A stretch of 64,000 nt of DNA from Candidatus Poribacteria bacterium (GTDB lineage: Bacteria > Poribacteria > WGA-4E > WGA-3G). Where the stretch lies: positions 68,644 to 132,643 of the forward strand of contig JAJDTM010000046.1 of the NCBI GenBank assembly GCA_022827185.1, read 5' to 3'. This document shows positions 7,157 to 54,239 of this stretch, one piece after another. Within the stretch, counting starts at the first letter, position 1. Every line of letters begins with the position of its first letter. The notes under the pieces were generated by a model, which worked only from the letters and a program-made list of their open reading frames with translations, did no database searches and had not been told where the DNA came from. The translations under genes and the position numbers were made by a program.

Positions 7157-7157
7157 A

Positions 7158-37990: not shown

Positions 37991-40900
37991 ATGCCAGCAC
38001 TCCTAATTTTTCAGCACGGGCAGTCCTTGACCTTCGCTATTATCAACCGTAGACCGAGTCAGCGAGACGGGGCCCGCTATGTGCTTGAAAAGATGGTACT
38101 TATCAAGGATATTGACGTTGCCACTCCGCACCGCGCACACCTTGACATCTTGGCAGACCTGTCGCTTGATGCCCTCTATCACCGGCACGAATTCACGAAC
38201 TTCTTGGAGCTCCATCAGGCGTGGCAGCGGACGTTGGACACCTCCGAACTCAACAGACGTTTCTTCAAAGAGATTGCCGATTGGTATTTCTGGGCAGTTG
38301 ATAAGGTGACGTTTCCATCGGATGCAGGCGACGACAAGACTGTTCGTAACGCGACCTGCATCATCCGTTTGATTACACGGCTGATCTTCGTCTGGTTTCT
38401 CAAAGAGAAAAACCTTGTGCCGGACGCGCTTTTTAACGAGGAAGCTATTGCGGAACTGCTCACAAGTCTGGATGCTCAGGAAAGCACCTATTACAAAGCC
38501 GTTCTCCAAAACCTATTTTTTGCAACCTTGAATCAGGAGATGAACACACCTGAAAAACCGAACACCCGCAAGTTCCGAGGGGAGGGCCGGCAGCACTATA
38601 ACATCACTTCGCTCTACCGCTATAAGCGTTATTTCAAGGATCCAGACGCGGCACTGCGGCTGTTTGAGACGGTCCCGTTCCTCAACGGTGGTCTGTTTGA
38701 GTGTCTGGATAAATCCGCACCGGATGATGCGAAAACGATCTTGCGTATAGACGGTTTCTCTGATAGAGACGACAACCCGCTCTATGTGCCAAACGAACTC
38801 TTCTTCTCCGAACCACAGGCGGTCAATCTCAACGCCGTCTATGGCACGAAAAATAGCAGGTATACCGTGCGTGGATTAATCCATATCCTCAACCGCTACA
38901 AATTTACGATTGCAGAGAACACACCGATAGAGGAAGAAGTCGCATTGGATCCCGAATTGCTCGGACAGGTCTTTGAAAACCTGCTTGCGGCGTTCAACCC
39001 CGAAACCGGCACGACTGCGCGTAAACAGACGGGTTCGTTCTATACACCCCGCGAAATCGTCAACTACATGGTGGACGAATCCCTCATCGCTTATCTCAAA
39101 AACACAGTTCGTAGTAGGGCAATTCATTGCCCGTCGGAAACCAAACTCCGTCATCTCCTATCCTACAACGACGAACCCCACCAATTCACCGATACTGAAG
39201 TTGAACATCTCATCAACGCCATAGACACACTGAAGATTCTGGATCCCGCCTGCGGCTCTGGTGCGTTCCCGATGGGCATCCTGCACAAACTCGTCTTCCT
39301 GCTCGGTAAACTTGACCCGCGCAACGCTCAGTGGCGACAACGGCAAATTGACCGCGTCCAAGCTGCCATTGCTACATCAGAGAAGATTGACGATAGCACC
39401 TTCCGTGAAAGTGCTATTGCTGAACTGGAACGCGAAATAGAGAGCATCAACGATGCATTTGAACGCAATGCACTCGACTACGGCAGAAAGCTCTATCTCA
39501 TAGAGAACTGCATCTACGGTGTGGACATCCAACCTATCGCGACACAGATCGCTAAACTCCGGTTTTTTATCTCGCTGATCGTTGAGCAGAAAATTGACGA
39601 TACGCGCGAAAACCGCGGGGTGCGTCCGTTGCCGAATTTGGAGACGAAGTTTGTCGCAGCGAATACGCTCCTCGGTGTAGAGAAACCCGAACAGATGATG
39701 CTTCGCAACCCAGGGATAGACAGCAAAGAGAAGGCATTAGCGGAGGTGCGCCGTCGGCACTTCACTGCGCGAACACCACGCACGAAAGATCGCTACAGAC
39801 AACGCGATGCGGAACTCCGCGCCGAAATCAGCGGATTGCTCAAACGGGACGGGTTTCCGAGTGAGACGACTGAAAAGATTGCTCATTGGGATCCATACAA
39901 CCAGAACGCCTCCGCAGATTTCTTTGACCCAGAATGGATGTTCGGTATTACGGAGGGGTTTGATGTCGTGATTGGCAACCCGCCTTACGTCCGTCAAGAG
40001 AAAATCAAGCATCTCAAACCCACGTTGAAAAAGCACTATACCTGTTACACAGGCGCAGCCGACCTCTACGTCTATTTCTATGAGCGCGGGCTGCAACTGC
40101 TGAGTCCAAGCGGTATCCATACGTTTATCTGTTCTAACAGTTGGCTGGATGTCAACTACGGCGCGCCGTTACAGAAGTATCTCTTAGATAACACAGCGGG
40201 TGCGGTTATCTGCCATAGCGAAGCGGAACGCGAATTTGAGAGTGCCGACATCAACACCATCGTTAGCCTTCTCCAAAACGGCACCCCCGATGCCGATTCT
40301 CACTTCCGCTTTCTCACCTTCAAGACGTTCATCGGCGATCCAGATATAGAAAATCGTCGAGAGCGGACACGCACGTATACCGAGTTGGGACAAGCAGGCA
40401 CGCGGGACAACAGATACACAGGCGACAAATGGGGTGGGAAATACCTCCGCGCCCCGGACATCTACTGGACGATTTTAGAGAAAGGCAAAGATAAACTGGT
40501 ACGCCTCGGTGATGTTGCCGAGGTGAGGCGAGGGTTCACAACCGGTGCAAATGAATTTTTCTATCTTGACGCGGATCGGGTTCAGGAATGGGGTATTGAA
40601 TCGGAATATCTGAGGCACGTTATCAAAAGTCCGCGTGAGTGCAAAAGTATCCGTGTGGATCCGAGTCAGTTGCAGTTCAAGTTGTTTATGTGCCATGCAG
40701 ACAAGGCAGCATTGACAGGCACTGCGGCGTTAGAATACATCAAATGGGGTGAATCGCAAGGGTATCATCAGCGACCGAGTTGTAAAGGACGGGTGCGTTG
40801 GTGGGATTTGGGTGAAGAGTCTGGAAATAGTATTTTTGTTAAAGAAGCAGATGAAACTTCGGCGGTATTTTACAACCCTGACAACTATCTCGTTGATTGC

Positions 40901-41275
40901 CGTCTCTACTATGCGAATCTTTCTAATCACGTCCTTTTGTTCTTAAATTCTGTCATTGGCGCAATGTTCTTTGAGCTATACAGCCGTTCAGGACTTGGCA
41001 AAGGTGCAAGAAGTATGATGGTTTCGGATTATGAGGATGTTCCAACTTTAGAGAATATAAATGTAGATAAGAAAGCGACTGAGTTGGTTTTAAGGCAAAT
41101 TTGCCCTTTGTCTCCCCGAAAATTTGCTAATTCTGAATCTGAGTGGTCTACCCTTGACGCAATCATCTTTGATGCCCTTGATCTCACACAAGGTGAACGG
41201 GATGGTGTGTATGAAGCGGTTGTTAATCTGGTGGAATCTCGGTTGCGGAAGGCGCGGAGTTTGAAGGGGAAATAG
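37991..41275 (+). CDS. Eco57I/MmeI/PglX-like gamma-class N6-adenine DNA methyltransferase with its own C-terminal TaqI_C-type target-recognition region; no recognisable nuclease domain
   Basis: 1094 aa. The N-terminal helical region carries PFLNGGLFE. Motif X is GSFYTPREIV, motif I is LDPACGSGAFPMG, and motif IV is VIGNPPYV. The C-terminal TRD-type region reads VRLGDVAEVRRGFTTGANEFFYL ... RWWDLGEE ... LLFLNSVIGAMFFEL. Confidence 0.75.
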   Translation: MPALLIFQHGQSLTFAIINRRPSQRDGARYVLEKMVLIKDIDVATPHRAHLDILADLSLDALYHRHEFTNFLELHQAWQRTLDTSELNRRFFKEIADWYFWAVDKVTFPSDAGDDKTVRNATCIIRLITRLIFVWFLKEKNLVPDALFNEEAIAELLTSLDAQESTYYKAVLQNLFFATLNQEMNTPEKPNTRKFRGEGRQHYNITSLYRYKRYFKDPDAALRLFETVPFLNGGLFECLDKSAPDDAKTILRIDGFSDRDDNPLYVPNELFFSEPQAVNLNAVYGTKNSRYTVRGLIHILNRYKFTIAENTPIEEEVALDPELLGQVFENLLAAFNPETGTTARKQTGSFYTPREIVNYMVDESLIAYLKNTVRSRAIHCPSETKLRHLLSYNDEPHQFTDTEVEHLINAIDTLKILDPACGSGAFPMGILHKLVFLLGKLDPRNAQWRQRQIDRVQAAIATSEKIDDSTFRESAIAELEREIESINDAFERNALDYGRKLYLIENCIYGVDIQPIATQIAKLRFFISLIVEQKIDDTRENRGVRPLPNLETKFVAANTLLGVEKPEQMMLRNPGIDSKEKALAEVRRRHFTARTPRTKDRYRQRDAELRAEISGLLKRDGFPSETTEKIAHWDPYNQNASADFFDPEWMFGITEGFDVVIGNPPYVRQEKIKHLKPTLKKHYTCYTGAADLYVYFYERGLQLLSPSGIHTFICSNSWLDVNYGAPLQKYLLDNTAGAVICHSEAEREFESADINTIVSLLQNGTPDADSHFRFLTFKTFIGDPDIENRRERTRTYTELGQAGTRDNRYTGDKWGGKYLRAPDIYWTILEKGKDKLVRLGDVAEVRRGFTTGANEFFYLDADRVQEWGIESEYLRHVIKSPRECKSIRVDPSQLQFKLFMCHADKAALTGTAALEYIKWGESQGYHQRPSCKGRVRWWDLGEESGNSIFVKEADETSAVFYNPDNYLVDCRLYYANLSNHVLLFLNSVIGAMFFELYSRSGLGKGARSMMVSDYEDVPTLENINVDKKATELVLRQICPLSPRKFANSESEWSTLDAIIFDALDLTQGERDGVYEAVVNLVESRLRKARSLKGK

Positions 41276-41340
41276 ATTAAATTCAGTTGATATTTGTTCA
41301 CCAGATGTGGTATTATTAACCCAAAAGAGAGGATTAGGTA

Positions 41341-43398
41341 ATGGCGAAAAAAATATCAAAGCGTGTTAAAACACTAAGTGGGTTTATGAAATGGGTGGAA
41401 CAATTCAACGATGGGCAATATCTGTTTCGAGGTGTTTCAAAACACACTCACAAATTGGAAGCATCTGCTTATCGTCGTCTGCCAGAAGCGGAAAGAAATA
41501 ATCAAAATAAACTCCTCAAAATCAATCAGGAGTTGATAGATAAAGCACGTCTTCTGGGGCACGATCAGAAAGATGGACATTACCTTTCTGATTTAGAACT
41601 GTTGGCAGAACTTCAGCACTTTGGTGCTGCTACCTGCTTGATAGATTTCACACGTAGCGCGCAGATCGCACTATGGTTTGCTTGCCAACAGAGTTCGACT
41701 GGAGAAGCAAATGGAAAAGTCTTCGCTGTGCGTTCTGACGATCCCGTACTCTTTAGAACCATTACCCCTAAATTGGTAGTCGAAAAAGACATTGGTTACT
41801 TTTTTGAAGAGGATGAGAGCGGGATATCTCCGCTATATCAATGGCAACCCAAGCAACAGAATAATCGTGTTATCGGCCAGCAATCCATTTTTATATTCGG
41901 TGGATCTCAAATTGAGGTGGCAGCAGAATGTGTAATTCTAAAAAGTAGTAAATCAGAAATTCTGGATTCTTTGGACAACTCTGCAGGTATCACTGAAGCG
42001 AGTATATATCCTGATTTTGACGGTTTCGCGCGTCTACATGCCCAAAATAAGCCATACATTGAACCGAATGTTCAAAGTTATCTGCAACGCGGGACCGAAG
42101 CACACTTAGAAGGCAAGCTTGATGATGCAATTGCCTACTACAGTGAAGTTATATCACTACAGCCAAACACTTCTACGCTAACTATAGCTTACCAAGGTCG
42201 TGGTTTTGCGTACTTTTTCAAACGTGAGTTTGACCCCGCTATTAAAGACTTTACCAAGGCAATAAATTCTAATTCCAAAGATGCCGTAACTTATTACAGT
42301 CGTGGGACAGTCTATAGTCTTACACGCGAATTTGATCTCGCTATCGCTGACTATACTAAAGCTATAGAACTTAATCCTGAGTTTGCTGAAGTCTACGTTC
42401 ATCGTGGTGCTGCTTACATTGACAATAACAAAGTTGATTTGGCCCTCAAGGACTATAACAAAGCGATGGAGCTTAAACCCGATGACCCTGTTACTTATGT
42501 CAGGCAAGGTATTGCTTACGGCAAAAAGGGGGAAATTGACACAGCTATTAAAAATCTTGGTAAGGCAATAGAACTCAATCCAAAATTTGCAGAAGCCTAC
42601 GCTACTCGTGGTGCTGCTTACATTGACAAAAAGGAACTTGATTTGGCTATTAGCGACTGTACGAAGGCGATAGAATTAGACCCAACTGATGCTACAGTAT
42701 ATTGCTACCGCGGTCGTGCTTACAACGAAAAAGGCATTTTTAACGAGGCGATTGATGACTTGACTCAAGCGATAGAACTGGATCCACATCTTGCCGAAGC
42801 TTACCTGAACCGTGGTAATGCCTACGATCATAAGAAAGATTTCAACAAGGCGATTGGTGATTATACTAAAGCGATAGAACTGGATCCAGATGACACTGAC
42901 TTCTACTGCTATCGCGGTTTTGCTTACCAACGCAAAGGTGATCTCAATTTGGCAATTGATGACTTTACCGAAGCGATAAAGAGAAATCCGAACTTTGCTG
43001 AAGCTTATCTGGATCGTGGATGTATTTATGGAGAAATAAGAGATTTTGACAAGGCGATTAATGATTTCACCAAATTGGTACAACTCAGACCTGATGATAG
43101 CAGAGCATACACTGCTCGCGGTGTTACTTACCGCAGGAAAGGTAATTTTAACTTAGCGATTAATGACTTTAGTAGAGGAATAAAAGTAGATCCAGATGAT
43201 GCTAAAGCTTATTACCACCGGGCCGATCTACGATTACACTTAAGGGAATTCAAAAAAGCCAAATCAGACCTAACAACTGCCAGAGACATGGGGGTAAATA
43301 TTATCGCTGCATTCCATAATAGCTACGAAAGCATTGAAGATTTTGAGCAGAAAACCGATATTCAGTTACCAGAAGACATCGCCGCGCTCTTGACCTAG
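41341..43398 (+). CDS. FRG-domain protein fused to ~13 TPR repeats and a conserved C-terminal module
   Basis: An N-terminal FRG motif (QYLFRGVSKHTHKLEASAYRR) and 34-aa TPR units (..A..Y..A..LDP..A.AY..RG.AY...). The C-terminal ARDMGVNIIAAFHNSYESIEDFEQKTDIQLPEDIAALL is shared with three neighbouring TPR proteins. Confidence 0.65.
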   Translation: MAKKISKRVKTLSGFMKWVEQFNDGQYLFRGVSKHTHKLEASAYRRLPEAERNNQNKLLKINQELIDKARLLGHDQKDGHYLSDLELLAELQHFGAATCLIDFTRSAQIALWFACQQSSTGEANGKVFAVRSDDPVLFRTITPKLVVEKDIGYFFEEDESGISPLYQWQPKQQNNRVIGQQSIFIFGGSQIEVAAECVILKSSKSEILDSLDNSAGITEASIYPDFDGFARLHAQNKPYIEPNVQSYLQRGTEAHLEGKLDDAIAYYSEVISLQPNTSTLTIAYQGRGFAYFFKREFDPAIKDFTKAINSNSKDAVTYYSRGTVYSLTREFDLAIADYTKAIELNPEFAEVYVHRGAAYIDNNKVDLALKDYNKAMELKPDDPVTYVRQGIAYGKKGEIDTAIKNLGKAIELNPKFAEAYATRGAAYIDKKELDLAISDCTKAIELDPTDATVYCYRGRAYNEKGIFNEAIDDLTQAIELDPHLAEAYLNRGNAYDHKKDFNKAIGDYTKAIELDPDDTDFYCYRGFAYQRKGDLNLAIDDFTEAIKRNPNFAEAYLDRGCIYGEIRDFDKAINDFTKLVQLRPDDSRAYTARGVTYRRKGNFNLAINDFSRGIKVDPDDAKAYYHRADLRLHLREFKKAKSDLTTARDMGVNIIAAFHNSYESIEDFEQKTDIQLPEDIAALLT

Positions 43399-43416
43399 CC
43401 AACGGACGAAAAAGAT

Positions 43417-43697
43417 CAACAAACCAAGAGTTTTCGCAGACTTCCACAACGCAGATGCAAAAGGCAGGGGTCCGATTGAACTGTGCCGGACAGCGGCGGA
43501 CCTTGAACGTCAGAAAATTATGCTGCGAAATGGATAGGCTCTTATTATCTATAGTGAAGAGTTGGAGGTTGAACGCATTGTTTGCTACTCCGAAAAAGAA
43601 AAGTTGTGGACAGGGGTGATTGATTGGGATGCCATTCAAGAGATAAAACCTGTCCCCTCTCAAATAACTCCGCAAATCCGTGACATAGCGCGGTAAT
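43417..43697 (+). pseudogene. Degenerate copy of the small protein gene found intact at 50794..51078 (no start codon, in-frame TAG)
   Basis: Nucleotide homology to 50806-51078 is ~90%, but ...CTGCGAAATGGATAGGCT has a TAG where the intact copy has CAG (Q), and there is no in-frame ATG. Confidence 0.45.
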
Positions 43698-43926
43698 GTG
43701 ATATACGCCTACACCTGATGAGATGGCTTCTTTTCAACTAATGCCTTAAGCATAGCATCGGGACGCGGTATTGTCTCATCGCGGATTGCACAGATTTCGC
43801 AGATTTTTTGAATCTGTATCATCTAGCATTATAGGTGACCGGTATGAAATCCGCGTCATCCGTACTATCTGTGCAAATCCGAGATTCAGACGATTGCGAG
43901 ATTTCATCCTCAAAGAAATTGGGATT

Positions 43927-46581
43927 ATGGAGAAAAAGCCGGTGAGTAAACCGTTAAAAGTGTTTATTACCTATTCACATAAAAATACAGCAGAAAAGGA
44001 CGAATTGATAACACGTCTTGCCCTTCTCAAACGTGAAGGCATAATAAGCATTTGGCATGACAACGAAATTCTGCCAGGTGACAAGTGGCGTGATGCTATC
44101 TTCAGCAATCTTGCGGATTCCGACCTTCTGCTCTATCTTACCTCTGCTGATAGCCTTGAATCTGAAAACTGTAATAAAGAATTAGCAGCGGCGTTAAACA
44201 CAGAGATAAGGGTGATTCCAATTATCCTTGAGCATTGTGATTGGCAAAACTATCAACTTAGTGACTTCCAAGCTCTTCCTGACAGAGGTAATCCTATTGA
44301 CGAATGGCAACCTGAGAGTAAAGGGTGGCAAAATGTAGTGGATGGTGTCCGAAAAGTTGTTGAAAGGCAGTCTGAGAATTGGTTTTCTGAAACCTTTGAG
44401 AAAGAACTTCGTGCTGAATCAGAGTTCCACCGTGGGAATGTTCAACAGCTGCTTGGGCAGCTAGAAATGGCAATAGAAGCCTATTCACAGTCCATTGACC
44501 TTAAACCTCGTGTTGCTAGTTCTTATAACAATCGCGGTGCTGCTTACCAGAAAAAAGGAAATTTTGATCGCGCCATTGAAGATTTTAACATGGCAATTGA
44601 ACTGAAAAACAACTATAGCCAAGCTTATTACAATCGTGGGCTCACTTACGACGAAAACGGTGAAATTGAAAAAGCCCTTGAAAACTATAATAAAGCGATA
44701 AAACTCAAACCTGATTATGCTGAAGCATATAGCAATCGAGGCAATATTTATAAGAAAGAAAGCAAGTTTGATAGAGCTGTCGCAGACTATAACATAGCGA
44801 TAAAACTCAGACCAGACCTTGCCGAGGTTCATTACAATCGCAGTGTAATTTACGAAAATGAAGGCGATTATGATAGGGCCATCCAAGATTGTAACACAGC
44901 GATAAAACTCAAACCCGATTTTCCCGAAGCGTATAACAATCGCGGTAACGCTTACATAGGAAAAGGTGAATTTGGCAATGCTATCGTGGATTATAATACG
45001 GCGATAAAACTCAAACCCGATTTTCCCGAAGCGTATTACAGCCGTGGTACTACTTATGGTATAACTGGCGATTCTAATAGCGCAATTAAAGACTTTGACA
45101 AAGCGATAAAACTCAAACCTGATTTTCCCGAGGCATACAGTAATCGCGGTAACGCTTACGTCTTTGAAGGCAAGTTGGAAAACGCTCTCAAAGACTACAC
45201 TGAAGCAATACAACTTAAACACGACTATGTTGATGCTTACTGTAATCGCGGAGCAGTTTATGGCATAACAGGCAATTATGACAGGGCAATCAAAGATTAT
45301 ACCGAAGCGATAAAACTCAATCCACACCATGCCAACGCCTATAATAATCGTGGAATGGCTTGGTTACACCTGCAAGAGTGGGATAGAGCCAAAACCGACT
45401 TCACAACTGCTAAACAGTTAGGCGTTGACATCATTGCAATGTTCCATAATTCCTACAAGGATGTTGAGACGTATCAAAAGAATCGGCTCGTCAAATTGCC
45501 GGAGGACCTTGCACTGCTGCTGACGCAACGCAGGCGGGATCGCTATCCGAAGCTGCAGAAAGTGTTGGATGCTGACGGCAATCCGCTGGAATTGCCGGAC
45601 GTGGTGAATTTACGCGAGCAGCTACGCAATGCTGGTCCCCAGCTAAGCGAGTACATCAATGCGAAGTCTGCCTTCGGTATTAATACGACCCCAACCGAGG
45701 TATTTGTGGTAGACAAAACGACACGGGATGAACTCATTGGGGCACATCCCGCATCTGCTGATATTTTGAAGCCGTTTTTGCACGGACAGGATATCAGACG
45801 TTGGTACGTTGATACACCGCAGCACTGGTTAATTTTTACCCACCGCGGTATAGCAATAGACGACTACCCGGCAATTTTGAAGTATTTGGAGAGTCATAAG
45901 GAGAGCCTACAGAAAAGAAAGGGTAAACAAGCATGGTACGAGTTACCGGCGTCTCTTGACCATGCGGAACGTTTTGCACAACCGAAACTGGTTTGTCCAA
46001 ACACCTATAACCATCACACTTTTGCGGTTGATACAGAGAGTTTTTATTACGGGAATACGTCTTACCTTATCCCAACCGAGGAAAAATGGCTTTGTGGGCT
46101 TCTCAATTCCCGGACTGTAGAGTGGTTCTATTCACAGGTGTCGAACCAATTGACGATTGATCCGCTTCGGGCGCGCAGCGGGTATATCCAACAGATTCCG
46201 ATTCCCGACATCACGCCAGTTCACAAAGCACTCATTGCTAAAATCGTTGACTACCTGATCTCTCTGCAGCAGCAACCGGAGATAAACAGCAAAGATTTGA
46301 AGTACGCCCGCGACCATGTGATGCTTGGATACTTTGAGCGCGTTATTGATGGATTGATTTATGAGGCTTACCTACCTGCGGAACTTCATAAGAGCGATAA
46401 AGTCTTCTTGCAACCGTTATTGGACGAAGGGTTGCCACTCATTGAAGAGATTCAGGGCAATAAAATGACTGCTTTCCGGGACATCTTTGAGCGGCTATAT
46501 GACAGGATGCATCTTGTCCGACGCCACCTTTATTATCTGGATGTTATAAAACCTATCCGCATTATTCAGGGGAAACTGTGA
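43927..46581 (+). CDS. TIR-domain protein fused to TPR array, the shared post-TPR module, and a C-terminal TaqI_C/Eco57I-C-like DNA target-recognition domain
   Basis: The TIR reads KVFITYSHKNTAEKDELITRL...ISIWHDNEILPGDKW...SENCNKEL. About nine TPR units follow. The shared module is AKQLGVDIIAMFHNSYKDVETYQKNRLVKLPEDLALLL. The C-terminus has GINTTPTEVFVV...GQDIRRWYV...HWLIFTHRG..YPAILKYLESHKESLQKRK..QAWYELP...KLVCPNTYNHHTFAVD..YY.NTSYLIP...LCGLLNSRTVEWFY...IQQIPIPD. I trimmed the start to ATG at 43927 (MEKKPVSKPLKVFITYSHKN). Confidence 0.65.
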   Translation: MEKKPVSKPLKVFITYSHKNTAEKDELITRLALLKREGIISIWHDNEILPGDKWRDAIFSNLADSDLLLYLTSADSLESENCNKELAAALNTEIRVIPIILEHCDWQNYQLSDFQALPDRGNPIDEWQPESKGWQNVVDGVRKVVERQSENWFSETFEKELRAESEFHRGNVQQLLGQLEMAIEAYSQSIDLKPRVASSYNNRGAAYQKKGNFDRAIEDFNMAIELKNNYSQAYYNRGLTYDENGEIEKALENYNKAIKLKPDYAEAYSNRGNIYKKESKFDRAVADYNIAIKLRPDLAEVHYNRSVIYENEGDYDRAIQDCNTAIKLKPDFPEAYNNRGNAYIGKGEFGNAIVDYNTAIKLKPDFPEAYYSRGTTYGITGDSNSAIKDFDKAIKLKPDFPEAYSNRGNAYVFEGKLENALKDYTEAIQLKHDYVDAYCNRGAVYGITGNYDRAIKDYTEAIKLNPHHANAYNNRGMAWLHLQEWDRAKTDFTTAKQLGVDIIAMFHNSYKDVETYQKNRLVKLPEDLALLLTQRRRDRYPKLQKVLDADGNPLELPDVVNLREQLRNAGPQLSEYINAKSAFGINTTPTEVFVVDKTTRDELIGAHPASADILKPFLHGQDIRRWYVDTPQHWLIFTHRGIAIDDYPAILKYLESHKESLQKRKGKQAWYELPASLDHAERFAQPKLVCPNTYNHHTFAVDTESFYYGNTSYLIPTEEKWLCGLLNSRTVEWFYSQVSNQLTIDPLRARSGYIQQIPIPDITPVHKALIAKIVDYLISLQQQPEINSKDLKYARDHVMLGYFERVIDGLIYEAYLPAELHKSDKVFLQPLLDEGLPLIEEIQGNKMTAFRDIFERLYDRMHLVRRHLYYLDVIKPIRIIQGKL

Positions 46582-48017
46582 AAATAACCAATATTAAGAT
46601 TAAAAATTTCAGAGCTTTTCCGCAAATCTATCACATCAATCTTCATAATGCGGGGAAGAACTTACTTGTTTATGGAGAAAATGGGAGCGGAAAATCGTCA
46701 CTGTATCTCGCCCTAAAGTATTTTCTTGAATCCGGTGTGCCCGAAAATAGCGAGGATGACAGGAACCGGGCGTTTGAAACCCATCAAAATATCTTTACCG
46801 AGGATCTTGGTCATATCAAACTTCATTTCCGTTCAGAGCCTCAACGAGAGAAAGATACCTATGAGTGGTCAAGAGATGTTAAACAGACAACTGACGAGCT
46901 GATTATTGAAACGTCAAAGGCGAAAGGCTTTCTGGACTACAAGGTGCTATTGGAAACACACTATCTTCATCGTGAAAACGATATTGTGAATTTGTTCGAT
47001 CTGTTGGTTGAAGTGCTGCTGGCAAACACTATCAACCCCAGGACAGATAGACCTCTCACAGCGGACTGGAACGCCATTCAGCCTCCGTTTCCTCGCAGAG
47101 GTGCAAAACACCAAATTGCGGACCTGGAAAGACAGATAGTCAACTTCAACAGGGAGTTAGCAAACAGGTTAGCAGAATTAAGTCCGAAGGTGTCCGAAAT
47201 TCTCAACAAGTTTGGATACAAAGTCGCGCTTGACTTTGATTTTCAAGGCGTTACGTACAACCAGGGTGAGAAAACGCTTGATAACCGAGAGATTCTCTTA
47301 AAAGTTGAATTTTTTGATACAGATATACCTTCACATCACCGATTCCTGAACGAGGCAAAGCTGTCAGCAATTGCGATTGCTATCTATCTTTCGTCAATCT
47401 TGTGCTTGCCAGAACCAAAAGAAGGCATGAAAATTCTTGCGCTTGACGATGTGCTGATAGGTTTGGATATGTCAAACCGTCTGCCGGTTCTTGACATTCT
47501 GAACGAGTACTTCTCAGATTACCAAATCTTCTTGACGACTTACGATAAGGCGTGGTATGAGATTGCTAAACAACGGACAGACCAAAAAGACTGGAAATAT
47601 GCTGAATTCTATTTCTCCCAAACCGATGAGTATGAAATTCCGGTCTATGCAGAAGATAAGGCATACCTTGAAAAGGCGCGGGAATATCTTGATTTGAATG
47701 ACTACAAAGCCTGTGCAATTTACGTCCGAACCGCTTTTGAAGCGGTAATCAAACGATACTGTGAGAAAAGGAATCTTGCCATTAAGTATCGTGAAAATCC
47801 GAAAGACTTGAGAAGTGAAGATTTTTGGGTACCGATAAAAATGGAAATGGACGAAGCGGGCGACCTCCTTTTAGATCTAAGAGTTGTTGACAAAATTGAA
47901 TTGGCACGAAAATTTATCCTAAATGAACTCAGTCATGATACCTTCGTGAATATCTACAGAAAGGAACTTGAGGATGCAATTGACGCGGTTGCGGAACTTG
48001 AAGCTGCTTTAGCATAG
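46578..48017 (+). CDS. SMC/RecF-like ABC ATPase (AAA_15/AAA_21-type), translationally coupled to the TIR gene
   Basis: A GTG start overlaps the TIR-gene TGA (GTGA). The N-terminus reads IKIKNFRAF..., Walker A is GENGSGKSS, the D-loop/Walker B is ILALDDVLIGLD, and the signature/His region reads QIFLTTYD. Confidence 0.7.
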   Translation: MKITNIKIKNFRAFPQIYHINLHNAGKNLLVYGENGSGKSSLYLALKYFLESGVPENSEDDRNRAFETHQNIFTEDLGHIKLHFRSEPQREKDTYEWSRDVKQTTDELIIETSKAKGFLDYKVLLETHYLHRENDIVNLFDLLVEVLLANTINPRTDRPLTADWNAIQPPFPRRGAKHQIADLERQIVNFNRELANRLAELSPKVSEILNKFGYKVALDFDFQGVTYNQGEKTLDNREILLKVEFFDTDIPSHHRFLNEAKLSAIAIAIYLSSILCLPEPKEGMKILALDDVLIGLDMSNRLPVLDILNEYFSDYQIFLTTYDKAWYEIAKQRTDQKDWKYAEFYFSQTDEYEIPVYAEDKAYLEKAREYLDLNDYKACAIYVRTAFEAVIKRYCEKRNLAIKYRENPKDLRSEDFWVPIKMEMDEAGDLLLDLRVVDKIELARKFILNELSHDTFVNIYRKELEDAIDAVAELEAALA

Positions 48018-48044
48018 AGCTAAGCCGCGCTAAGATAATTCATA

Positions 48045-48266
48045 ATGATTCAGAATAATCAAGAACTTGAAACAACGTTGGAACGCATTGAACGCTTTCA
48101 AAAGATAGTTGAGAAACTCAAAGCGTCTGAAACAAATCCACGGAATTATGAGTTATCCACGGGCGGTTTCCTTGCGGAAATCGACCGGATGAAACTGGAA
48201 GTGAGAAAGTATCTATCCATTCATTCGAGCGAATTGATAGAACAAATTGCTGAAGGCAGTACCTAA
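48045..48266 (+). CDS. Small coiled-coil protein of unknown function
   Basis: A 73-aa ORF between the ATPase and the next TPR gene with no clear SD. It may be a real small adaptor or may be spurious. Confidence 0.3.
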   Translation: MIQNNQELETTLERIERFQKIVEKLKASETNPRNYELSTGGFLAEIDRMKLEVRKYLSIHSSELIEQIAEGST

Positions 48267-48337
48267 AAATAAGCAAAATCAATCCGCGTCATCCGTGAAA
48301 TCCGCGAAAATTCGCGATTTGCGGCGTACTCGCCCAA

Positions 48338-49663
48338 ATGCGACCTGCATTCAGACAAGCAAAAAGTCAAATTCCTCAAGTCACTTGCATCTTGGAGAAA
48401 AACATGGGAAAAAAACACAGTCAAAAACGCGCCGAGATGTATTACAAGCACGGGTTCGCTCAAAGGAAAAAAGCGGATTATGAGCGTGCTATTGTAGACT
48501 TTACCAAAGCGATAGAACACAATCCAGAAGATGTCTTTGCCTATACGAATCGGGGTGTAGTTTATTACAACAAGGGTAAGTTTTACCGTGCAGTCGATGA
48601 CTTTAGCAAAGTCATAAGCCTCACACCTGATGATGCATTTGCCTACTATGGCCGCGGGATGGCTTACCGCAATCTGCTGATTTTTGAGAAAGCCATCCAA
48701 GACTTTAGCACGGCGATACGTCTTAAACCCGATACGGCTGCTGATGCCTATACCGAGCGCGGTGTAACTTATCACACCAAAGGTGATGTAGACCATGAAG
48801 GTGATGTAGACCATGCTATTGAAGACTATAATGCTGCGATAGCACTGGATCCAGCGTTTGCACAGGCTTGGACGGCGCGCGGTAAAGCTTATCGTGATAA
48901 AGGCGAGATTGACAAGGCAATTGAAAATTACAACAAGGCGATTGAACTCAACCCAGAACTCGCTGAGCCTTATACCTACCGCGGTCTTATCTACACCGAA
49001 CAAGGCGCGGTAGACAAAGCGATTGAAGATCATAGCAAAGCGATCACGTGCAACCCAGAGTTTGCCGAAGCGTACGTTAATCGAGGGCAGGCTTACTACG
49101 CCAAAAACGAATTGGACCAGGCGATAGCAGATTATGACAAAGCCATAGAGATCGATTCAGAACTTGTGGAGGCATACACGTATCGGGGCAACGCGTATCG
49201 CGCTAAAGTCGAGTTAGACAGCGCAATTGCGGATTATACCGAGGCACTAAAACTCAGACCAAAGATTGCTGAATTCTATTACACACGGGGTGAGGCTTGG
49301 TTGCTTGCGAAAGGTTGGGAAGAGGCGAAGACCGACTTGACAGCTGCGCTCCTACAAGACATGGATGTCGCCGCTGCGTTTCACAATATCCACGGGAGCA
49401 TTGCTGCCTTTGAGGAGAAGATAGGGAGTCGTTTGCCGAGAGAGATTGTAGTATTATTGACACCGCGGAGCGAACCGTTTGAAATTGATAAAGATGCGCG
49501 GATCGCGTTGGGAATGAAGTATTATGGAAACGACGAACTCAGCAGTGGACTCGCAGCGCGCCTTGCAGGTGTCCCACGCGAAGATTTCTGGTACCTAATG
49601 GGGGATTACGGTCTCTCTCTCCTTACCCTTGATGAAGAAGAGCACGCCAAGAGCGGATTTTAA
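48338..49663 (+). CDS. TPR-repeat protein with shared post-TPR module and C-terminal UPF0175-type antitoxin domain
   Basis: TPR units are followed by AAFHNIHGSIAAFEEKIGSRLPREIVVLL. The C-terminal ALGMKYYGNDELSSGLAARLAGVPREDFWYLMGDYGLSL matches the UPF0175 antitoxin fold pattern. An alternative start is ATG at 48404. Confidence 0.6.
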   Translation: MRPAFRQAKSQIPQVTCILEKNMGKKHSQKRAEMYYKHGFAQRKKADYERAIVDFTKAIEHNPEDVFAYTNRGVVYYNKGKFYRAVDDFSKVISLTPDDAFAYYGRGMAYRNLLIFEKAIQDFSTAIRLKPDTAADAYTERGVTYHTKGDVDHEGDVDHAIEDYNAAIALDPAFAQAWTARGKAYRDKGEIDKAIENYNKAIELNPELAEPYTYRGLIYTEQGAVDKAIEDHSKAITCNPEFAEAYVNRGQAYYAKNELDQAIADYDKAIEIDSELVEAYTYRGNAYRAKVELDSAIADYTEALKLRPKIAEFYYTRGEAWLLAKGWEEAKTDLTAALLQDMDVAAAFHNIHGSIAAFEEKIGSRLPREIVVLLTPRSEPFEIDKDARIALGMKYYGNDELSSGLAARLAGVPREDFWYLMGDYGLSLLTLDEEEHAKSGF

Positions 49664-49666
49664 AGA

Positions 49667-50158
49667 ATGCCGATACAACCAGTTGTTAGCAATAACAGTC
49701 CGCTTGTGGGACTTTTGGGGATCAATCTGCTTTCTCTGTTGCGAGATCTTTATACAGAGGTATGGATTCCACGAAAAGTTGAAAAGGAGTTTCTCAGAAA
49801 GGATCCGATAGTCCGCCGGGAGGCACTCGAAAATGCTCCCTGGATTAAAACTGTTGATTTAACGGATCCGCGAACCGCTGCGGTTCATGCGGAACTTGAT
49901 GAGGGTGAAGCCGAGGCATTGGCTCTTGCTAATGAACATGACGCTCGTCTCGTTCTTCTTGATGAAAAGAAAGGAAGACAGAAAGCCAAGCAAATTGGAT
50001 TAACGGCTATGGGGATAGTAGGCGTTTTGCAAGAGGCGAAGGAAGAAGGCTTGATTGATGCCATCAAGCCGCTTTTAATTCGGTTGCAGGATAACGGAAT
50101 CCACCTGAGCGAATCGCTCATCAATAACGCCCTACAAGACGCAGGTGAGGCAGATTAG
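49667..50158 (+). CDS. DUF3368-type PIN-domain protein (toxin partner of UPF0175)
   Basis: The conserved acidic residues of the DUF3368/PIN fold are present (VVSNNSPLVGLLGI..., ...DEGEAEALALA..., LVLLDEKKGRQKA). It starts 3 nt after the TPR-UPF0175 stop. Confidence 0.65.
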   Translation: MPIQPVVSNNSPLVGLLGINLLSLLRDLYTEVWIPRKVEKEFLRKDPIVRREALENAPWIKTVDLTDPRTAAVHAELDEGEAEALALANEHDARLVLLDEKKGRQKAKQIGLTAMGIVGVLQEAKEEGLIDAIKPLLIRLQDNGIHLSESLINNALQDAGEAD

Positions 50159-50397
50159 CAGGCGGGTTTACAACGCACACTCACGTTGTATGGAAGTGAC
50201 AGAATAAATTAATTGCTACCAGATATTGCCGAAATGTTGACGTAGTAGTAGGAGCAAAGCCTAATCCACCGCTTCAAAACCGCTGCCAGTTTCAAGTAGG
50301 AGAGCATTCTGTCTGCACGATTTATCCCAGCAATCCTTTAATCCTGATTCAGACAATATTATACATACCGCTCTGCTGGAGGAGAAGGAAAAACGAC

Positions 50398-50790
50398 CAT
50401 AGTTGTCAATTTAGGGATCCGCCAGGTCCGGTAGGTTCGGTTTCCCAACCGAACCGGACTGCCCCAAGACCGGCGGATGCTTTCTCTCAAGGGATGTGTC
50501 GGTTGAGTTTGTGTGTATAACCCGGGGCAGTTAGGAAACTACACCATAGGTGTCAATTTAGGGTTTTTTCACGGCATTTGGGAATGGTTAATAAACATGC
50601 CGCCCTTACAGGGCTTGGTTTTTGCTTGAACATGCTGCTATAAACATATCGTCCCTCCGGGACTAAAGAGGGTTATGAAGTCTTCAAGGTTTTCGCGTCG
50701 TATCCGGTTCGGTTAGTAAACCGAACCTACCGGGTCCGGGGCTGAGGTGGTTATTTTTTTAAAATTGACACTTATGGGTCAGAAGAAAAA
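50398..50790. repeat. Repeat-rich intergenic block: family-C palindromes (50423-50465 and 50704-50741, mutually inverted), 21-bp direct repeats ACCATAG(T/G)TGTCAATTTAGGG (50398-50418, 50543-50563) and an inverted partial copy (50765-50780)
   Basis: Read directly from the sequence. It separates the two TPR-UPF0175/PIN modules. Confidence 0.6.
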
Positions 50791-50793
50791 ACG

Positions 50794-51078
50794 ATGATGA
50801 ATAAACCAAGAGTTTTCACAGACTTCCACAACGCGGATGCAAAAGGTAGGGTCCGATTGAATTGTGCTGAAACTGCGGCGGACCTTGAACGTCAGAAAAT
50901 TATGCTGCGAAATGGACAGGTTCTTATTATCTATAGCGAAGAGTTAGAGGTTGAAGGCATTGTTTGCTACTCCGAAGAGGAAAAGTTGTGGACAGCGGTA
51001 ATTGATTGGAATGCTATTCAAGAGATAGAACCTGTCGCCTCCCAAATAACTCCGCAAATCCGTGACATAGCGGGGTAA
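50794..51078 (+). CDS. Small conserved hypothetical protein (94 aa); intact copy of the pseudogene at 43417..43697
   Basis: The ORF is MMNKPRVFTDFHNADAKGRVRLNCAETAADLERQKIMLRNGQVLIIYSEELEVEGIVCYSEEEKLWTAVIDW... Both copies immediately precede a TPR-module gene. Confidence 0.4.
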   Translation: MMNKPRVFTDFHNADAKGRVRLNCAETAADLERQKIMLRNGQVLIIYSEELEVEGIVCYSEEEKLWTAVIDWNAIQEIEPVASQITPQIRDIAG

Positions 51079-51133
51079 TGTGATATACTTCTACACTACC
51101 TTTGAGAAACCTGCCTTGTGAAGGAGAGAACTG

Positions 51134-52543
51134 ATGCAAGAACTGATCCAGGGTTCTGTGGATACTTATTACAACAGCGATTTTGCCGAGGTGAAAAGAG
51201 AAGACGACGCAGCAAGACATAACACCCAAGGCATCGCTTATAGTAAAAACGGTGAGCACGCACGCGCAATCGCAGCCTTCAACAAGGCGGTAAAACTGGA
51301 TCTACATTTTGCCGAGGCTTATTACAATCGCGGATGCGCTTATGACGGCAAAGGCGATTATGAAAAAGCAATTGAAGACTATTGCGCAGCGATCAAGCAC
51401 AATCCCAATTTTGCTGAGGCATACAACAACCGCCGTAACACATATAAGAAAAAAGGCACCGCATATAAAACCTACGGAGATTATAGTATAGCGATAAAGT
51501 TGGCTCCACAACTGACTGAGGCATATTACAATCGAGGGACCGACTCTCTCAAAGAAGGTTCCTATAACGATGCGATTAGAGATTATGACACGGCAATAGA
51601 ACGCCAGCCAAAGTTTCCGCAATTTTATAATGCTCGCGGTGTCGCTTACGAAAATGACAGCGAGATTTTGGCTGTGCTTTCACGCTATAAGGTAGCAGTA
51701 GGGCTGGAGGCGAGAGTCCCTAAAGTCCGTATATCTTACGGAGAGGAATACTACAGTGAAGCGGAACTCCGTGCTGCTATTGAAGACTATAGCACAGCGA
51801 TCGATTTGAAACCGAATTATGCCGAGGCGTATTTCAATCGTGGGAGAGCACACTTCAAAAAAGGTGAGAGTGATGCCGCTATCAAAGACTATAGTACAGC
51901 AATCGCTTTGAAATCAGATTACGCCGAGGCGTATCTCAACCTTGGTGTGGCTTATGACAGCAGAGATGAGTTTGACGCTGCACTCGAAAACTATAATATA
52001 TCCGTATCCCTCGCCTCTGATCTCCCGATTGCTTACAGTCATCGAGGTGCTGCTTCCCTCCGTAAAGGTAAAGTAAAATCAGCGATTGAAGACTATAACA
52101 CAGTCCTATCTCTCAATCCCGATTACACAGCGGTGTATTACAAGCGCGGGATAGCATGGTTATATGTGAGAGAGTGGGAGAAAGCGAAAACCGACCTGAT
52201 TGCCGCCAAAGATAGAGGTATGGCTATCATGCAGACGTTCCATGACGATTACAGAAACGTGGTAACGTTTGAACAGAAAACGGGTGTTCATTTACCTGAA
52301 GACATAACGGGATTGCTAATTCCACAAAAAGGGCTTGCCGAACTGGAAAAGGAAACTCGGCTGGCGTTGGCATTGAAATATTATAAAAGCGGCGCGATCA
52401 GTACCGGACTCGCTGCGCAATTGGTAGGTATATCCCGCGAAGCGTTCTGGTATCTTATGGGGGATTACGGGCTCTCTCTGTTTGAGCTAACTGAAGATCT
52501 ACTTGCGGAGCTCGATAATGCCTCCAAGACCAATTATCAGTAA
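51134..52543 (+). CDS. TPR-repeat protein with shared post-TPR module and C-terminal UPF0175-type antitoxin domain (second copy)
   Basis: A good RBS (GAAGGAGAG) precedes the start. The module reads TFHDDYRNVVTFEQKTGVHLPEDITGLL and the C-terminus reads ALALKYYKSGAISTGLAAQLVGISREAFWYLMGDYGLSL. Confidence 0.6.
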   Translation: MQELIQGSVDTYYNSDFAEVKREDDAARHNTQGIAYSKNGEHARAIAAFNKAVKLDLHFAEAYYNRGCAYDGKGDYEKAIEDYCAAIKHNPNFAEAYNNRRNTYKKKGTAYKTYGDYSIAIKLAPQLTEAYYNRGTDSLKEGSYNDAIRDYDTAIERQPKFPQFYNARGVAYENDSEILAVLSRYKVAVGLEARVPKVRISYGEEYYSEAELRAAIEDYSTAIDLKPNYAEAYFNRGRAHFKKGESDAAIKDYSTAIALKSDYAEAYLNLGVAYDSRDEFDAALENYNISVSLASDLPIAYSHRGAASLRKGKVKSAIEDYNTVLSLNPDYTAVYYKRGIAWLYVREWEKAKTDLIAAKDRGMAIMQTFHDDYRNVVTFEQKTGVHLPEDITGLLIPQKGLAELEKETRLALALKYYKSGAISTGLAAQLVGISREAFWYLMGDYGLSLFELTEDLLAELDNASKTNYQ

Positions 52544-53015
52544 TAATAGTCCGCTCGTTGCACTTTTAGGACTTGACCTTCTTTCTTTATTACGCGAACT
52601 TTACACTGAGGTATGGATTCCTGAAGAGGTCAAAGCGGAGTTTCTTGGGGTAGAAAGAATGCACCGCCTGCAGGCACTTAACGATGCTCCATGGATTAAA
52701 ACCGTTCATTTGACAGATGTAACGGACGTATCAACTTATGTGAGAAGCGGACTTGATCTTGGTGAAGCCGCCGTATTCGCGCTTGCCAAAGAACACGATG
52801 CTCAATTTGTCATTATTGATGAACTCAAGGCGCGACAGCATGCTGCGAGAATCGGATTATCTTTTAAAGGCACGCTTGGCATTTTGCTTGAGGCGAAGGA
52901 AGAAGGCTTGATTGATGCCATCAAGCCGCTTTTAATTCGGTTGCAGGATAACGGAATCCACCTGAGCGAATCGCTCATCAATAATGCCCTACAGGACGCG
53001 GGTGAGGTGGATTAA
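52518..53015 (+). CDS. DUF3368-type PIN-domain protein (second copy)
   Basis: It is paralogous to 49667..50158; the C-terminal 60 aa are nearly identical. I trimmed the start to ATG at 52518 (MPPRPIISNNSPLVALLG), which overlaps the upstream TPR gene end. Confidence 0.65.
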   Translation: MPPRPIISNNSPLVALLGLDLLSLLRELYTEVWIPEEVKAEFLGVERMHRLQALNDAPWIKTVHLTDVTDVSTYVRSGLDLGEAAVFALAKEHDAQFVIIDELKARQHAARIGLSFKGTLGILLEAKEEGLIDAIKPLLIRLQDNGIHLSESLINNALQDAGEVD

Positions 53016-53171
53016 CGGGCATGTTTACACAATCCTATAAATCTTGATTTAGAACAATAGAATATGCAATATGCCGCGGTTGTAGACCCACGTTATCGTT
53101 GGCAATTTAAGGTGACTTGAAAAGAAAGGTATGCTATACTTAGGCAAAATTTTATTGATGGAGTTTATTTT

Positions 53172-54110
53172 TTGATGAATAACGAATGGGTTGTTTACGA
53201 AGGGAACGAGGGGCCCGGGCAAGGTAAACATATTGTCCTTGTCAGTGGCGATGAAGAGTATCGCTCTGAAGAGGCGTTACCGATGTTGGGGAAGGTGTTA
53301 GCTACACATCACGGGTTTAAATGCACAGTGCTGTTTGCTATTAATCCCGATACAGGCGAGATTGATCCGGAAGTGCAGACCAATATTCCCGGACTTCATA
53401 ACTTAGAATCAGCAGATATGATGGTACTGTTCACGCGTTTCCGTGAACTGCCCGATGAACAGATGAAATATGTCGTTGACTATACGAATGCTGGTAAACC
53501 TGTGATGGGACTCCGGACAGCGACACACGCTTTTAGTTATAGCCGCGATCTTGAGAGTCCGTATGCAAAATATAGTTTCAATAGCAAAGATTTTGAAGGC
53601 GGCTACGGCAGACAGGTGCTCGGTGAGACGTGGGTTAATCACCATGGACATCACGGGAAAGAGAGCGCGCGCGGTGTCATTGATGAAGCCATGCAGGACC
53701 ATCCGATCCTCAAAGGTGTTGACGATGTTTGGGGTCCGTCCGATGTCTACGGCATTAATGATTTGACAGGCGATTCCGAAGTGCTTATCCACGGGCAGGT
53801 ACTGGTCGGTATGGATCCGACAGATGCGCCAAAACCGGATACTATCACAATGCCGATGGTGTGGATTAAAACCTATACAGGTGATGAAGGCAACACCTCA
53901 CGTGTCCTTAACACAACGATGGGTGCCTCTGTTGATTTGGAAAGCGAAGGACTTCGCCGTCTGCTTGTCAATGGTTGCTATTGGTGTATGGGAATGGAGG
54001 ACGCAATTCCTGATAAGAGTGTTGTCGATTATGTCGGCGATTATGAACCGACGTTCTTCGGTTTCGGCACTTTTACAAAAGGTGTCTGTCCGGGAGACCA
54101 TGCCTTGTAG
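53172..54110 (+). CDS. ThuA-like (class-I glutamine amidotransferase-like fold) protein
   Basis: ...GKPVMGLRTATHAF... and ...HPILKGV... resemble ThuA-family conserved blocks. Moderate confidence. Confidence 0.45.
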   Translation: MMNNEWVVYEGNEGPGQGKHIVLVSGDEEYRSEEALPMLGKVLATHHGFKCTVLFAINPDTGEIDPEVQTNIPGLHNLESADMMVLFTRFRELPDEQMKYVVDYTNAGKPVMGLRTATHAFSYSRDLESPYAKYSFNSKDFEGGYGRQVLGETWVNHHGHHGKESARGVIDEAMQDHPILKGVDDVWGPSDVYGINDLTGDSEVLIHGQVLVGMDPTDAPKPDTITMPMVWIKTYTGDEGNTSRVLNTTMGASVDLESEGLRRLLVNGCYWCMGMEDAIPDKSVVDYVGDYEPTFFGFGTFTKGVCPGDHAL

Positions 54111-54145
54111 TCCGATCTTTCGTCAGATATTAAATCGTGAAGGGT

Positions 54146-54235: not shown

Positions 54236-54239
54236 TAAT

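Follow-up and report, generated by a model that had tools for sequence, protein, structure and literature searches.

A TIR-TPR protein with a restriction-enzyme target-recognition domain is paired with an ABC-HEPN ATPase in Candidatus Poribacteria: a candidate abortive-infection module derived from type IIG enzymes

Why would a TIR domain share a polypeptide with the DNA target-recognition domain (TRD) of a restriction-modification enzyme, and why would the gene for such a fusion overlap that of an ATP-binding cassette (ABC) ATPase? The question is raised by two adjacent forward-strand genes in a 64,000-nucleotide (nt) stretch of a Candidatus Poribacteria assembly (GCA_022827185.1, contig JAJDTM010000046.1, positions 68,644 to 132,643), referred to below as the window, in which an 884-amino-acid (aa) TIR-TPR(10)-TRD-tail protein (gene 1, 43927..46581) is followed by a 479-aa ABC ATPase with a C-terminal HEPN domain (gene 2, 46578..48017). 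Our analysis revealed that the pair is a lineage-specific derivative of a widespread, unnamed family in which a type IIG enzyme is coupled to an ABC-HEPN ATPase, and that in Poribacteria and Latescibacterota the nuclease-methylase half of the enzyme has been swapped for TIR, FRG or HNH-like heads and TPRs, with the TRD and a C-terminal tail of about 110 aa kept. The pair is a real and conserved module of the defence type, apparently undescribed so far, whose function and trigger we infer: we consider it reasonably probable that it is a restriction-derived abortive-infection module of the ABC-HEPN ATPase family, with a predicted TIR NADase and a predicted HEPN RNase as its effectors.

Gene 1 starts at the ATG at position 43927, inside an open reading frame (ORF) spanning 43771-46581, a start position shared by its homologues, and the N-terminus of the protein reads MEKKPVSKPLKVFITYSH. 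Pfam and PADLOC profile searches resolved the protein into four parts. The N-terminal TIR domain (aa about 10-150; 43954..44376) was matched by Pfam TIR_2 at aa 12-117 (E = 4.7e-16) and by the PADLOC ThsB TIR profile PDLC00420 at aa 12-151 (1.1e-29), the latter match being confined to the TIR domain. Within its motif S79-x-N-C82-N83-x-E85-L86, the residues S79, C82, N83 and E85 are invariant among 25 homologues, and established knowledge of TIR NADases marks E85 as the putative catalytic glutamate. The TIR domain is followed by an array of ten 34-aa TPRs (aa about 165-504; 44419..45438), a count obtained both from the Pfam TPR_1 stretches and from a separate, purpose-built hidden Markov model (HMM), and mirrored in a 102-bp period with 72% match in the underlying DNA. 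Across homologous loci the copy number varies from 3 to 21 in the genome-locus census and reaches up to about 25 in locus L007.

The C-terminal part of gene 1 comprises a TaqI_C-type TRD core (aa about 562-769; 45610..46233) and a helical tail (aa about 770-884; 46234..46578), the predicted ATPase-coupling element. Pfam TaqI_C was found at aa 615-759 (E = 7.8e-15), and a profile of the TRD module searched against the PDB gave the TRD of M.BseCI (7qw5, residues 322-570, E = 6.8e-18) as its sole match. The TRD core and tail together (the C-terminal 345 aa) share 32-45% identity with the C-termini of Eco57I-family enzymes of 950-1400 aa, and the type IIG profiles of PADLOC align to gene 1 from profile position ~700-965 onward, covering aa 560-790. 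Neither Pfam nor PADLOC returned an Eco57I, N6_Mtase or MmeI_Mtase match for a methyltransferase domain anywhere in the 884 aa, and an N-terminal endonuclease domain was not found with Pfam, the N-terminus being the TIR domain.

The GTG start codon of gene 2 (46578) overlaps the TGA stop codon of gene 1 (46579-46581; sequence ...ctGTGAaa), with GGGGA located 8 nt upstream. The encoded protein (structure model pLDDT, predicted local distance difference test, 67.7) matched Pfam AAA_23, SMC_N and AAA_15 (E = 1e-11 to 1e-13) and carries the motifs GENGSGKSS, ILALDDV and QIFLTTYD. Its SMC/Rad50/RecF-like ABC head (aa 1-345; 46578..47612) has a short helical arm, Walker A at G33-S41, a signature-like N258-E259 and the Walker B/D-loop residues D290-D291 ... 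G295-L296-D297. In an alignment of 71 homologues from more than 12 phyla (31-93% identity), the Walker A, signature-like and Walker B/D-loop residues were invariant, as was R301. The head is followed by a HEPN-fold domain (aa about 360-479; 47655..48014) in which R384, E388, N449 and H453 are 100% conserved in the same alignment. Given this C-terminal HEPN-fold domain with its invariant R/E/N/H residues, gene 2 likely contributes a second effector, a predicted RNase.

An earlier sequence-only reading of this DNA had proposed an N-terminal TIR domain, about nine TPRs, a TRD-like C-terminus without methyltransferase motifs, and a stop/GTG overlap with a 479-aa ABC ATPase carrying the quoted motifs. 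These assignments were borne out by the searches above, with the exception of the repeat count, which is ten. The same reading regarded the TIR domain as the effector of the system; the domain is indeed present, but it turned out to be one of several interchangeable heads (FRG, HNH-like, a different TIR, or none), and the HEPN domain of the ATPase had been missed.

To what extent do the two genes belong together? At least 254 relatives of the gene 2 ATPase were found in species-representative genomes of more than 12 phyla. For a scan of this family, restricted to one genome per species, ORFs were called in the best 80 ATPase loci and the gene directly upstream of each of 79 ATPase genes was classified. 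A TRD-bearing gene directly preceded the ATPase gene in 61 of the 79 cases, 40 of these 61 with an overlap of exactly 4 nt, which argues against a chance arrangement of genes 1 and 2. By architecture, the upstream position was occupied by a full-length Eco57I-family methylase with TRD (type IIG, 1130-1400 aa) in 28/79, by a TIR-TPR-TRD gene in 13/79, by a TPR-TRD gene with another head or headless in 13/79, by inserted cargo genes or none in 15/79, and by a contig edge in 3/79.

Outside Poribacteria, the usual upstream partner is a complete type IIG enzyme. Such full-length partners were found in Cyanobacteria, Bacteroidota, Planctomycetota, Acidobacteriota, Chloroflexota, Desulfobacterota, Chlorobiota, Saccharibacteria and Proteobacteria, and match the PADLOC REase_MTase_IIG profiles, in L065 over essentially the full length from residue 1 (E = 1.3e-286). 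TRD-only partners were found in Nostoc, Parabeggiatoa, Desulfonema and Aminicenantes. Poribacteria, Latescibacterota and unclassified metagenome-assembled genomes (MAGs) were the only sources of the TIR-TPR-TRD and TPR-TRD forms, and gene 1 homologues with 55-94% identity belong to Poribacteria and Latescibacterota. In Poribacteria, each homologous ATPase inspected was preceded by a gene ending in the TRD module, nearly always with a 4-nt overlap. When the TRD module was searched exhaustively against 1.84 billion representative proteins, the picture was congruent: the X-TPR-TRD clade (X denoting the head) reaches down to about 45% identity, and nearly all of ten matches scanned below this value were Eco57I-family type IIG enzymes aligned via their C-terminal TRD and tail, one of the ten (P0258, 455 aa) having a TaqI_C domain only. 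The combination of a TIR-TRD protein and an ATPase is apparently undescribed, as previously suggested, yet it is no isolated invention, being derived from the type IIG plus ABC-HEPN pair.

A plasmid scan gave three matches, with a true pair only on a Nostoc conjugative plasmid, where a TRD-only gene and an ATPase gene, labelled "TaqI-like C-terminal specificity domain-containing protein" and "AAA family ATPase" in GenBank, stand with no methylase nearby. A scan of viral contigs for phage-borne copies returned four weak matches, two of 27% identity and two covering only the first ~45 residues. Some "standalone" TaqI_C matches in Poribacteria proved to be artefacts, caused by an assembly gap of Ns inside the TPR array in L003 and by a split TIR-TPR/TRD gene in L001.

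One Poribacteria genome (L007) carries two complete pairs in tandem, at 1-5502 and 5560-9449, the first consisting of a 1366-aa TPR(~25)-TRD protein with a 491-aa ATPase and the second of an 814-aa TIR-TPR-TRD protein with a 482-aa ATPase; as the two ATPases are ~49% identical, distinct paralogous lineages coexist in this locus. In other phyla, cargo genes are found between the type IIG gene and the ABC-HEPN ATPase gene, namely Schlafen/AlbA_2-HATPase_c_4 (L062, L063, L064, L067 and L073), ABC-3C parts (L063), superfamily 2 (SF2) helicases (L068 and L076) and Bro-N (L091). Such insertions resemble type I restriction-modification operons hosting abortive-infection genes.

The part of gene 1 that appears to connect it with the ATPase is the tail. 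Among 75 TRD matches ending no more than 120 nt from the ATPase start, 74 contained the tail, extending to the last 16 residues of the module; the one that did not is an additional, partial match to an L034 protein that does have the tail. In three-gene loci, where an X-TPR-TRD or TRD-only gene separates a second type IIG gene from the ATPase gene, this type IIG gene has no tail. When identities to the window proteins were correlated across loci (Spearman), the tail followed the ATPase with a rho of 0.94 (n = 52) and the TRD core followed it with a rho of 0.86 (n = 52), values to which shared phylogeny contributes, while TIR head and ATPase identities were unrelated (rho 0.01, n = 14), so that the heads move independently of the rest. 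Based on this co-occurrence and co-variation, the tail is likely the element that couples the TRD protein to the ATPase, and the two proteins would form a complex through it.

These data also bear on the possibility that the pair is an accessory of a neighbouring type IIG system, serving as an alternative specificity or regulatory subunit with a DNA-handling ATPase. The candidate neighbour is a forward-strand gene at 37991..41275, encoding a 1094-aa Eco57I-family type IIG-like methylase (Pfam Eco57I, E = 1.4e-37; PADLOC REase_MTase_IIG, 7e-78) with its own, unrelated C-terminal TRD. An Eco57I-family gene lies upstream of the pair in the window and at L002, L003, L014, L020, L024, L033, L036 and L087, the order type IIG, X-TRD, ATPase recurs at all of these and at L083, and MANTIS provides a precedent for ATPases that load PglX-like methylases onto DNA. 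However, the pair frequently stands alone, without an Eco57I-family gene upstream at L004, L009-L013 and L015-L018, and the upstream type IIG genes are devoid of the coupling tail. The neighbour itself is N-terminally truncated: it starts ~175 codons downstream of its orthologues in L003 (1268 aa) and L014 (1281 aa), with homology to these beginning at 37963, and the L002 copy is split into 279 and 692 aa, yet the pair is intact in both loci. In relatives, the segment corresponding to the missing N-terminus has a weak DUF4391 match. The gene may be a decaying or methylase-only copy, and it is a frequent but dispensable neighbour, which makes an accessory role of the pair quite improbable. We also considered gene 1 as the detached TRD of this gene and rejected the idea, since the 1094-aa protein has a C-terminal TRD of its own and bears no similarity to gene 1. 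Neither the type IIG gene nor the other members of a six-gene cassette that the sequence-only reading had treated as a possible unit accompany the pair at all loci, so that these genes are not obligatory, the larger cassette is not conserved, and genes 1 and 2 apparently form a conserved, autonomous two-gene unit.

Decay of the surroundings could likewise suggest that recombination in TPR-rich DNA gave rise to gene 1, and that it is itself a type IIG fusion or remnant in decay, devoid of a function of its own. The truncated and split methylase genes of the window and L002 could be taken in this sense; in addition, L006 has a TaqI_C fragment of 101 aa, and the copies in L001, L029 and L035 are split or frameshifted. 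Opposed to this are intact ORFs of the X-TPR-TRD architecture in at least 26 genome loci, with 55-94% identity and the 4-nt overlap kept, and the invariance of the HEPN residues, of the ATPase motifs and of the catalytic motif of the TIR domain, so that we regard a functionless remnant as highly improbable.

If the pair is a functional unit, what does its TRD recognize? The sequence-only reading had proposed that recognition of a specific, possibly unmodified DNA motif is coupled to the TIR output. In such a mechanism, the TRD would read an unmodified motif on incoming DNA, the TIR domain would replace the nuclease output, and a cognate methylase would protect self. As a DNA-specificity domain the TRD is genuine, Poribacteria often have an Eco57I-family methylase gene upstream, and the TRD core diverges faster than the tail (29% against 56% identity in L027, and 44-45% against 56-57% in L021 and L026) and faster than the ATPase, as a specificity determinant would, so that DNA recognition may still matter. 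Nevertheless, cognate methylation is not supported. There is no methylase within 9 kb at the loci named above as lacking the upstream gene, nor beside the Nostoc plasmid pair, the neighbouring methylase of the window has an unrelated TRD, and the TRDs encoded by the upstream type IIG genes of seven three-gene loci share only 24-41% identity with the sensor TRD and rank 12th to 67th of ~75. A cognate methylase for the sensor TRD was accordingly rejected as a candidate, since the sensor TRDs have no match in the TRD cores of the type IIG genes next to them. In addition, a motif of 4-6 bp cannot be missing from a host genome of 5-6 Mb. With many loci lacking a methylase and adjacent type IIG TRDs being unrelated or poorly matched, we consider sensing of an unmodified motif unlikely.

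The TPR-TRD chassis carries a range of heads: FRG in five loci, an HNH_5-like domain (E = 6e-5), another TIR_2, heads of unknown type, or no head at all. In L002, the TRD and ATPase are 93% identical to those of the window and the TIR only 63%. The reverse applies to L087, where the nearest relative of the window TIR (85%) resides in a gene without TRD beside an FRG-TPR-TRD gene whose TRD is only 56% identical to that of the window. The L087 genes are arranged as TIR-TPR without TRD (2597-5419) followed by FRG-TPR-TRD (6437-9004), and the window shows the reciprocal order, FRG-TPR followed by TIR-TPR-TRD, which points to recombination within the TPR arrays as the route of head-cassette exchange. 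The FRG-TPR gene of the window (41341..43398, forward strand) encodes a 685-aa protein without TRD or tail (Pfam FRG, E = 2.9e-15, 11 TPRs; PADLOC PDC-S15, 1.3e-30) and is possibly a spare or displaced head cassette rather than a conserved part of the pair. This protein also gave a borderline match to TPR-S (PF20308, 33 bits).

Head exchange is relevant to a further explanation, in which gene 1 encodes a eukaryote-like TIR and TPR protein that a sponge symbiont uses to manipulate host signalling, and phage defence plays no part. The Poribacteria and Latescibacterota that carry the pair are associated with sponges, sponge symbionts are known for eukaryote-like proteins rich in TPRs, and bacterial TIR proteins can disturb host Toll-like receptor (TLR) signalling. 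But gene 1 descends from restriction enzymes and shares translational coupling with an ABC-HEPN ATPase that is cytoplasmic, its TIR domain is interchangeable with FRG and HNH-like heads and is best matched by the Thoeris ThsB profile (1.1e-29), and the locus is part of a variable island with toxin-antitoxin-like genes. A role in host manipulation is thus hardly credible.

For the restriction-derived abortive-infection module that we favour, the following mechanism is conceivable. The TRD-tail protein and the ATPase would associate through the tail, and in the resting state both the predicted TIR NADase and the predicted HEPN RNase would be kept inactive. A phage- or plasmid-dependent event at the TRD/ATPase sensor would then lead to ATP-dependent engagement of the ABC heads; this event could be the binding of foreign DNA, or an attack by an anti-restriction factor as in the EcoprrI-PrrC system, in which PrrC is held latent by the linked type Ic enzyme EcoprrI and released when the phage T4 peptide Stp attacks EcoprrI (PMC3710099). 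Head engagement would release the HEPN RNase and allow the TIR domains to assemble and consume NAD+, and the infection would be aborted. The TRD and tail would thus act as sensor and coupling element, the ABC heads as switch, and TIR and HEPN as effectors. In the ancestral pair, a type IIG enzyme would have been guarded by a latent ABC-HEPN protein, and in Poribacteria a TPR scaffold with a TIR, FRG or HNH-like head would have taken the place of the enzyme half, resulting in an abortive-infection module independent of restriction.

A more specific version of this mechanism is tentative, and we give it a modest chance of being right. Here, the TRD-tail protein would be a catalytically dead "decoy restriction enzyme" that offers the DNA-recognition surface of a type IIG enzyme to anti-restriction factors of phages (DNA mimics or Stp-like peptides, for example) as a bait, and the ABC-HEPN ATPase would turn an attack on it into NAD+ depletion by TIR and RNA cleavage by HEPN. 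The pair would then be a PrrC-like guard that no longer depends on a working restriction enzyme, with heads exchanged by recombination of the TPR arrays and adjacent TRD-less head-TPR genes serving as spare cassettes.

Several observations weigh against the abortive-infection reading and temper our confidence, in addition to the share of common descent in the tail and TRD core correlations. A tyrosine (Y322) is present where the H-loop histidine is expected in gene 2, so that ATP turnover may be slow. The HEPN-fold domain is devoid of the canonical Rx4-6H spacing and has R444-x4-N449-x3-H453 instead, with R444 83% conserved, for which reason RNase activity is not assured. An AlphaFold model of the TRD module was poor (mean pLDDT 53.3, core <50) and unsuitable for a fold search, and the TRD homology accordingly rests on profile-sequence evidence. 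Gene 2 has no significant sequence similarity to PrrC and RloC outside the P-loop, as the AAA_13 profile (PF13166) scored 17.0 bits at a cut-off of 36 and matched aa 11-51 (the P-loop) only. Furthermore, all carriers of the TIR form are uncultured MAGs, and the proposed mechanism offers no explanation for the sparing of self DNA.

The genomic setting of the pair is that of a variable island. For both proteins, sponge-associated "Candidatus Poribacteria" assemblies contain the nearest homologues, with up to 94% identity. The GC content of the window drops to 0.42-0.45 over 41-49 kb, compared with 0.47-0.51 in the flanks, which is consistent with a horizontally acquired or fast-turnover island. 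L002 is syntenic, with PhyH and aspartokinase on one side and ThuA and a sigma-factor fusion on the other, and its island differs from that of the window in the split type IIG gene, a TIR-only gene in place of FRG-TPR, and one TPR-UPF0175/DUF3368 module where the window has two. In each of these modules, a TPR array fused to a UPF0175 antitoxin-like domain is followed by a gene for a PIN-like DUF3368 protein (PADLOC PDC-S70), all on the forward strand (48338-49663 and 49667-50158 for the first copy, 51134-52543 and 52503-53015 for the second); TPR arrays hence decorate several unrelated conflict genes in this region.

Two segments of the window, 43409-43715 and 50790-51096, both align to L002 9466-9772 with about 72% and 88% identity, respectively; the L002 region contains small ORFs of 93-114 aa without Pfam match and looks like a repeated small element or gene. 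Further downstream, two reverse-strand genes (54240-57263 and 60189-63182) each encode a ~1000-aa protein in which ECF-type sigma-70 regions 2 and 4 are fused to a BNR/Sortilin-type beta-propeller, an unusual sigma-factor architecture that is kept in L002.

If the proposed reading is true, the ABC-HEPN ATPase would be a widespread, overlooked partner of type IIG enzymes, for which annotation tools label the methylase as "RM (restriction-modification) type IIG" and ignore the ATPase, and the principle known from PrrC, in which a restriction enzyme carries a latent RNase along, would extend from type I to type IIG. The pair would also be a clear case of domain replacement, in which immune-effector heads on a TPR scaffold have supplanted the catalytic half of an enzyme while its recognition and coupling half was kept, and would link restriction-modification and TIR-based abortive infection evolutionarily. 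Tractable systems for its study would be the TRD-only and ATPase pairs of cultured Nostoc and Desulfonema, as well as the type IIG and ATPase pairs of cultured Shinella, Prosthecochloris and Adhaeribacter.

How, finally, does the pair compare with known systems? PADLOC searches of the nine genes at 37991-57263 assigned it to none of them, no NCBIfam model scored above cut-off for gene 1 or gene 2, and full-text literature searches brought up neither a TIR-TRD fusion nor a type IIG plus ABC-HEPN pair, in agreement with the earlier claim of an undescribed system. Thoeris, Lamassu, PARIS, Septu, Gabija, MADS and Hma were each considered as the identity of the pair and rejected, as their defining components are missing here. 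With Thoeris, gene 1 shares a ThsB-like TIR domain with the conserved catalytic glutamate, and Pfam ThsB_TIR matches its homologues. The TIR is, however, fused to TPRs and a TRD and coupled to an ATPase, and no ThsA (SIR2, Macro or transmembrane domain plus SLOG) was matched by Pfam or PADLOC in the nine genes, nor was one found in related loci. Lamassu differs in that its LmuA core (DUF4297) is absent from gene 1 and its neighbours, the conserved part of the partner being TRD and tail, and in gene order and coupling; moreover, the gene 2 ATPase is short (479 aa, with a short arm and no long coiled coil) and carries HEPN. PARIS is likewise a two-gene unit with an ABC ATPase, and conceptually both may trap phage anti-restriction factors, but the AriA match of gene 2 is weak (2.5e-12, N-terminal 98 aa), AriA belonging to the OLD family and gene 2 being SMC/Rad50/RecF-like with a TRD protein as its partner. 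In general, AriA, PtuA and GajA gave weak N-terminal matches in PADLOC (1e-8 to 1e-12), with no Toprim, PtuB (HNH) or GajB (helicase) partner.

MADS requires MAD6, MAD7 and MAD8, mad3 being accessory (bioRxiv 10.1101/2023.03.30.534895); the mad3 profile was matched here (6.1e-13, over 1-324 of 374), but no other mad gene is present in the neighbourhood. Hma, a BREX-related type 1 system, resembles the pair in carrying HEPN on the ATPase subunit of a methylase-containing restriction-like system, where HEPN is fused to the DUF499 ATPase and predicted to act as a back-up suicide RNase (PMC12839542). The Hma ATPase is, in contrast, a STAND/ORC-type AAA+ protein with N-terminal HEPN that is accompanied by an N6-methylase and a helicase-nuclease, whereas gene 2 is an ABC protein with C-terminal HEPN and has no helicase. 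MANTIS/Gao_RL was rejected on similar grounds, as MANTIS, like Hma, has an AAA+ ATPase with different partners.

Closer relations exist to two groups of restriction-associated proteins. The type IIG/IIL enzymes of the Eco57I/MmeI/TaqI family share the C-terminal TaqI_C/MmeI-type TRD with gene 1 and differ from it in their methyltransferase and nuclease domains, in place of which the N-terminal half of gene 1 consists of TIR and TPRs. PrrC and RloC share with gene 2 an N-terminal Rad50/SbcC-like ABC NTPase and a C-terminal HEPN domain in one polypeptide, and PrrC is, like gene 2, genetically embedded in or coupled to a restriction-modification enzyme. PrrC combines its ABC NTPase with a HEPN RNase that has an Arg320-Glu324-His356 triad (PMC1484252), and the R384-x3-E388...H453 of gene 2 follows the same pattern as Arg320-x3-Glu324...His356, which is an analogy of pattern and makes equivalence of the residues no more than possible. 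AAA_13 matches were obtained at E values up to 0.1 for 48 of 58 homologues of the ATPase (best 5.6e-6). The partner of PrrC is a type I HsdMSR enzyme, that of gene 2 a type IIG enzyme or a TRD remnant of it which, unlike in PrrC, bears a second effector (TIR). The logic of the pair is thus a variant of known restriction-linked, ATPase-switched abortive infection and no wholly new principle, and the window pair fits the family that we propose, an ABC-HEPN ATPase encoded behind a gene ending in TRD and tail, with a 4-nt overlap and a tail and ATPase 31-93% identical to those of its members.

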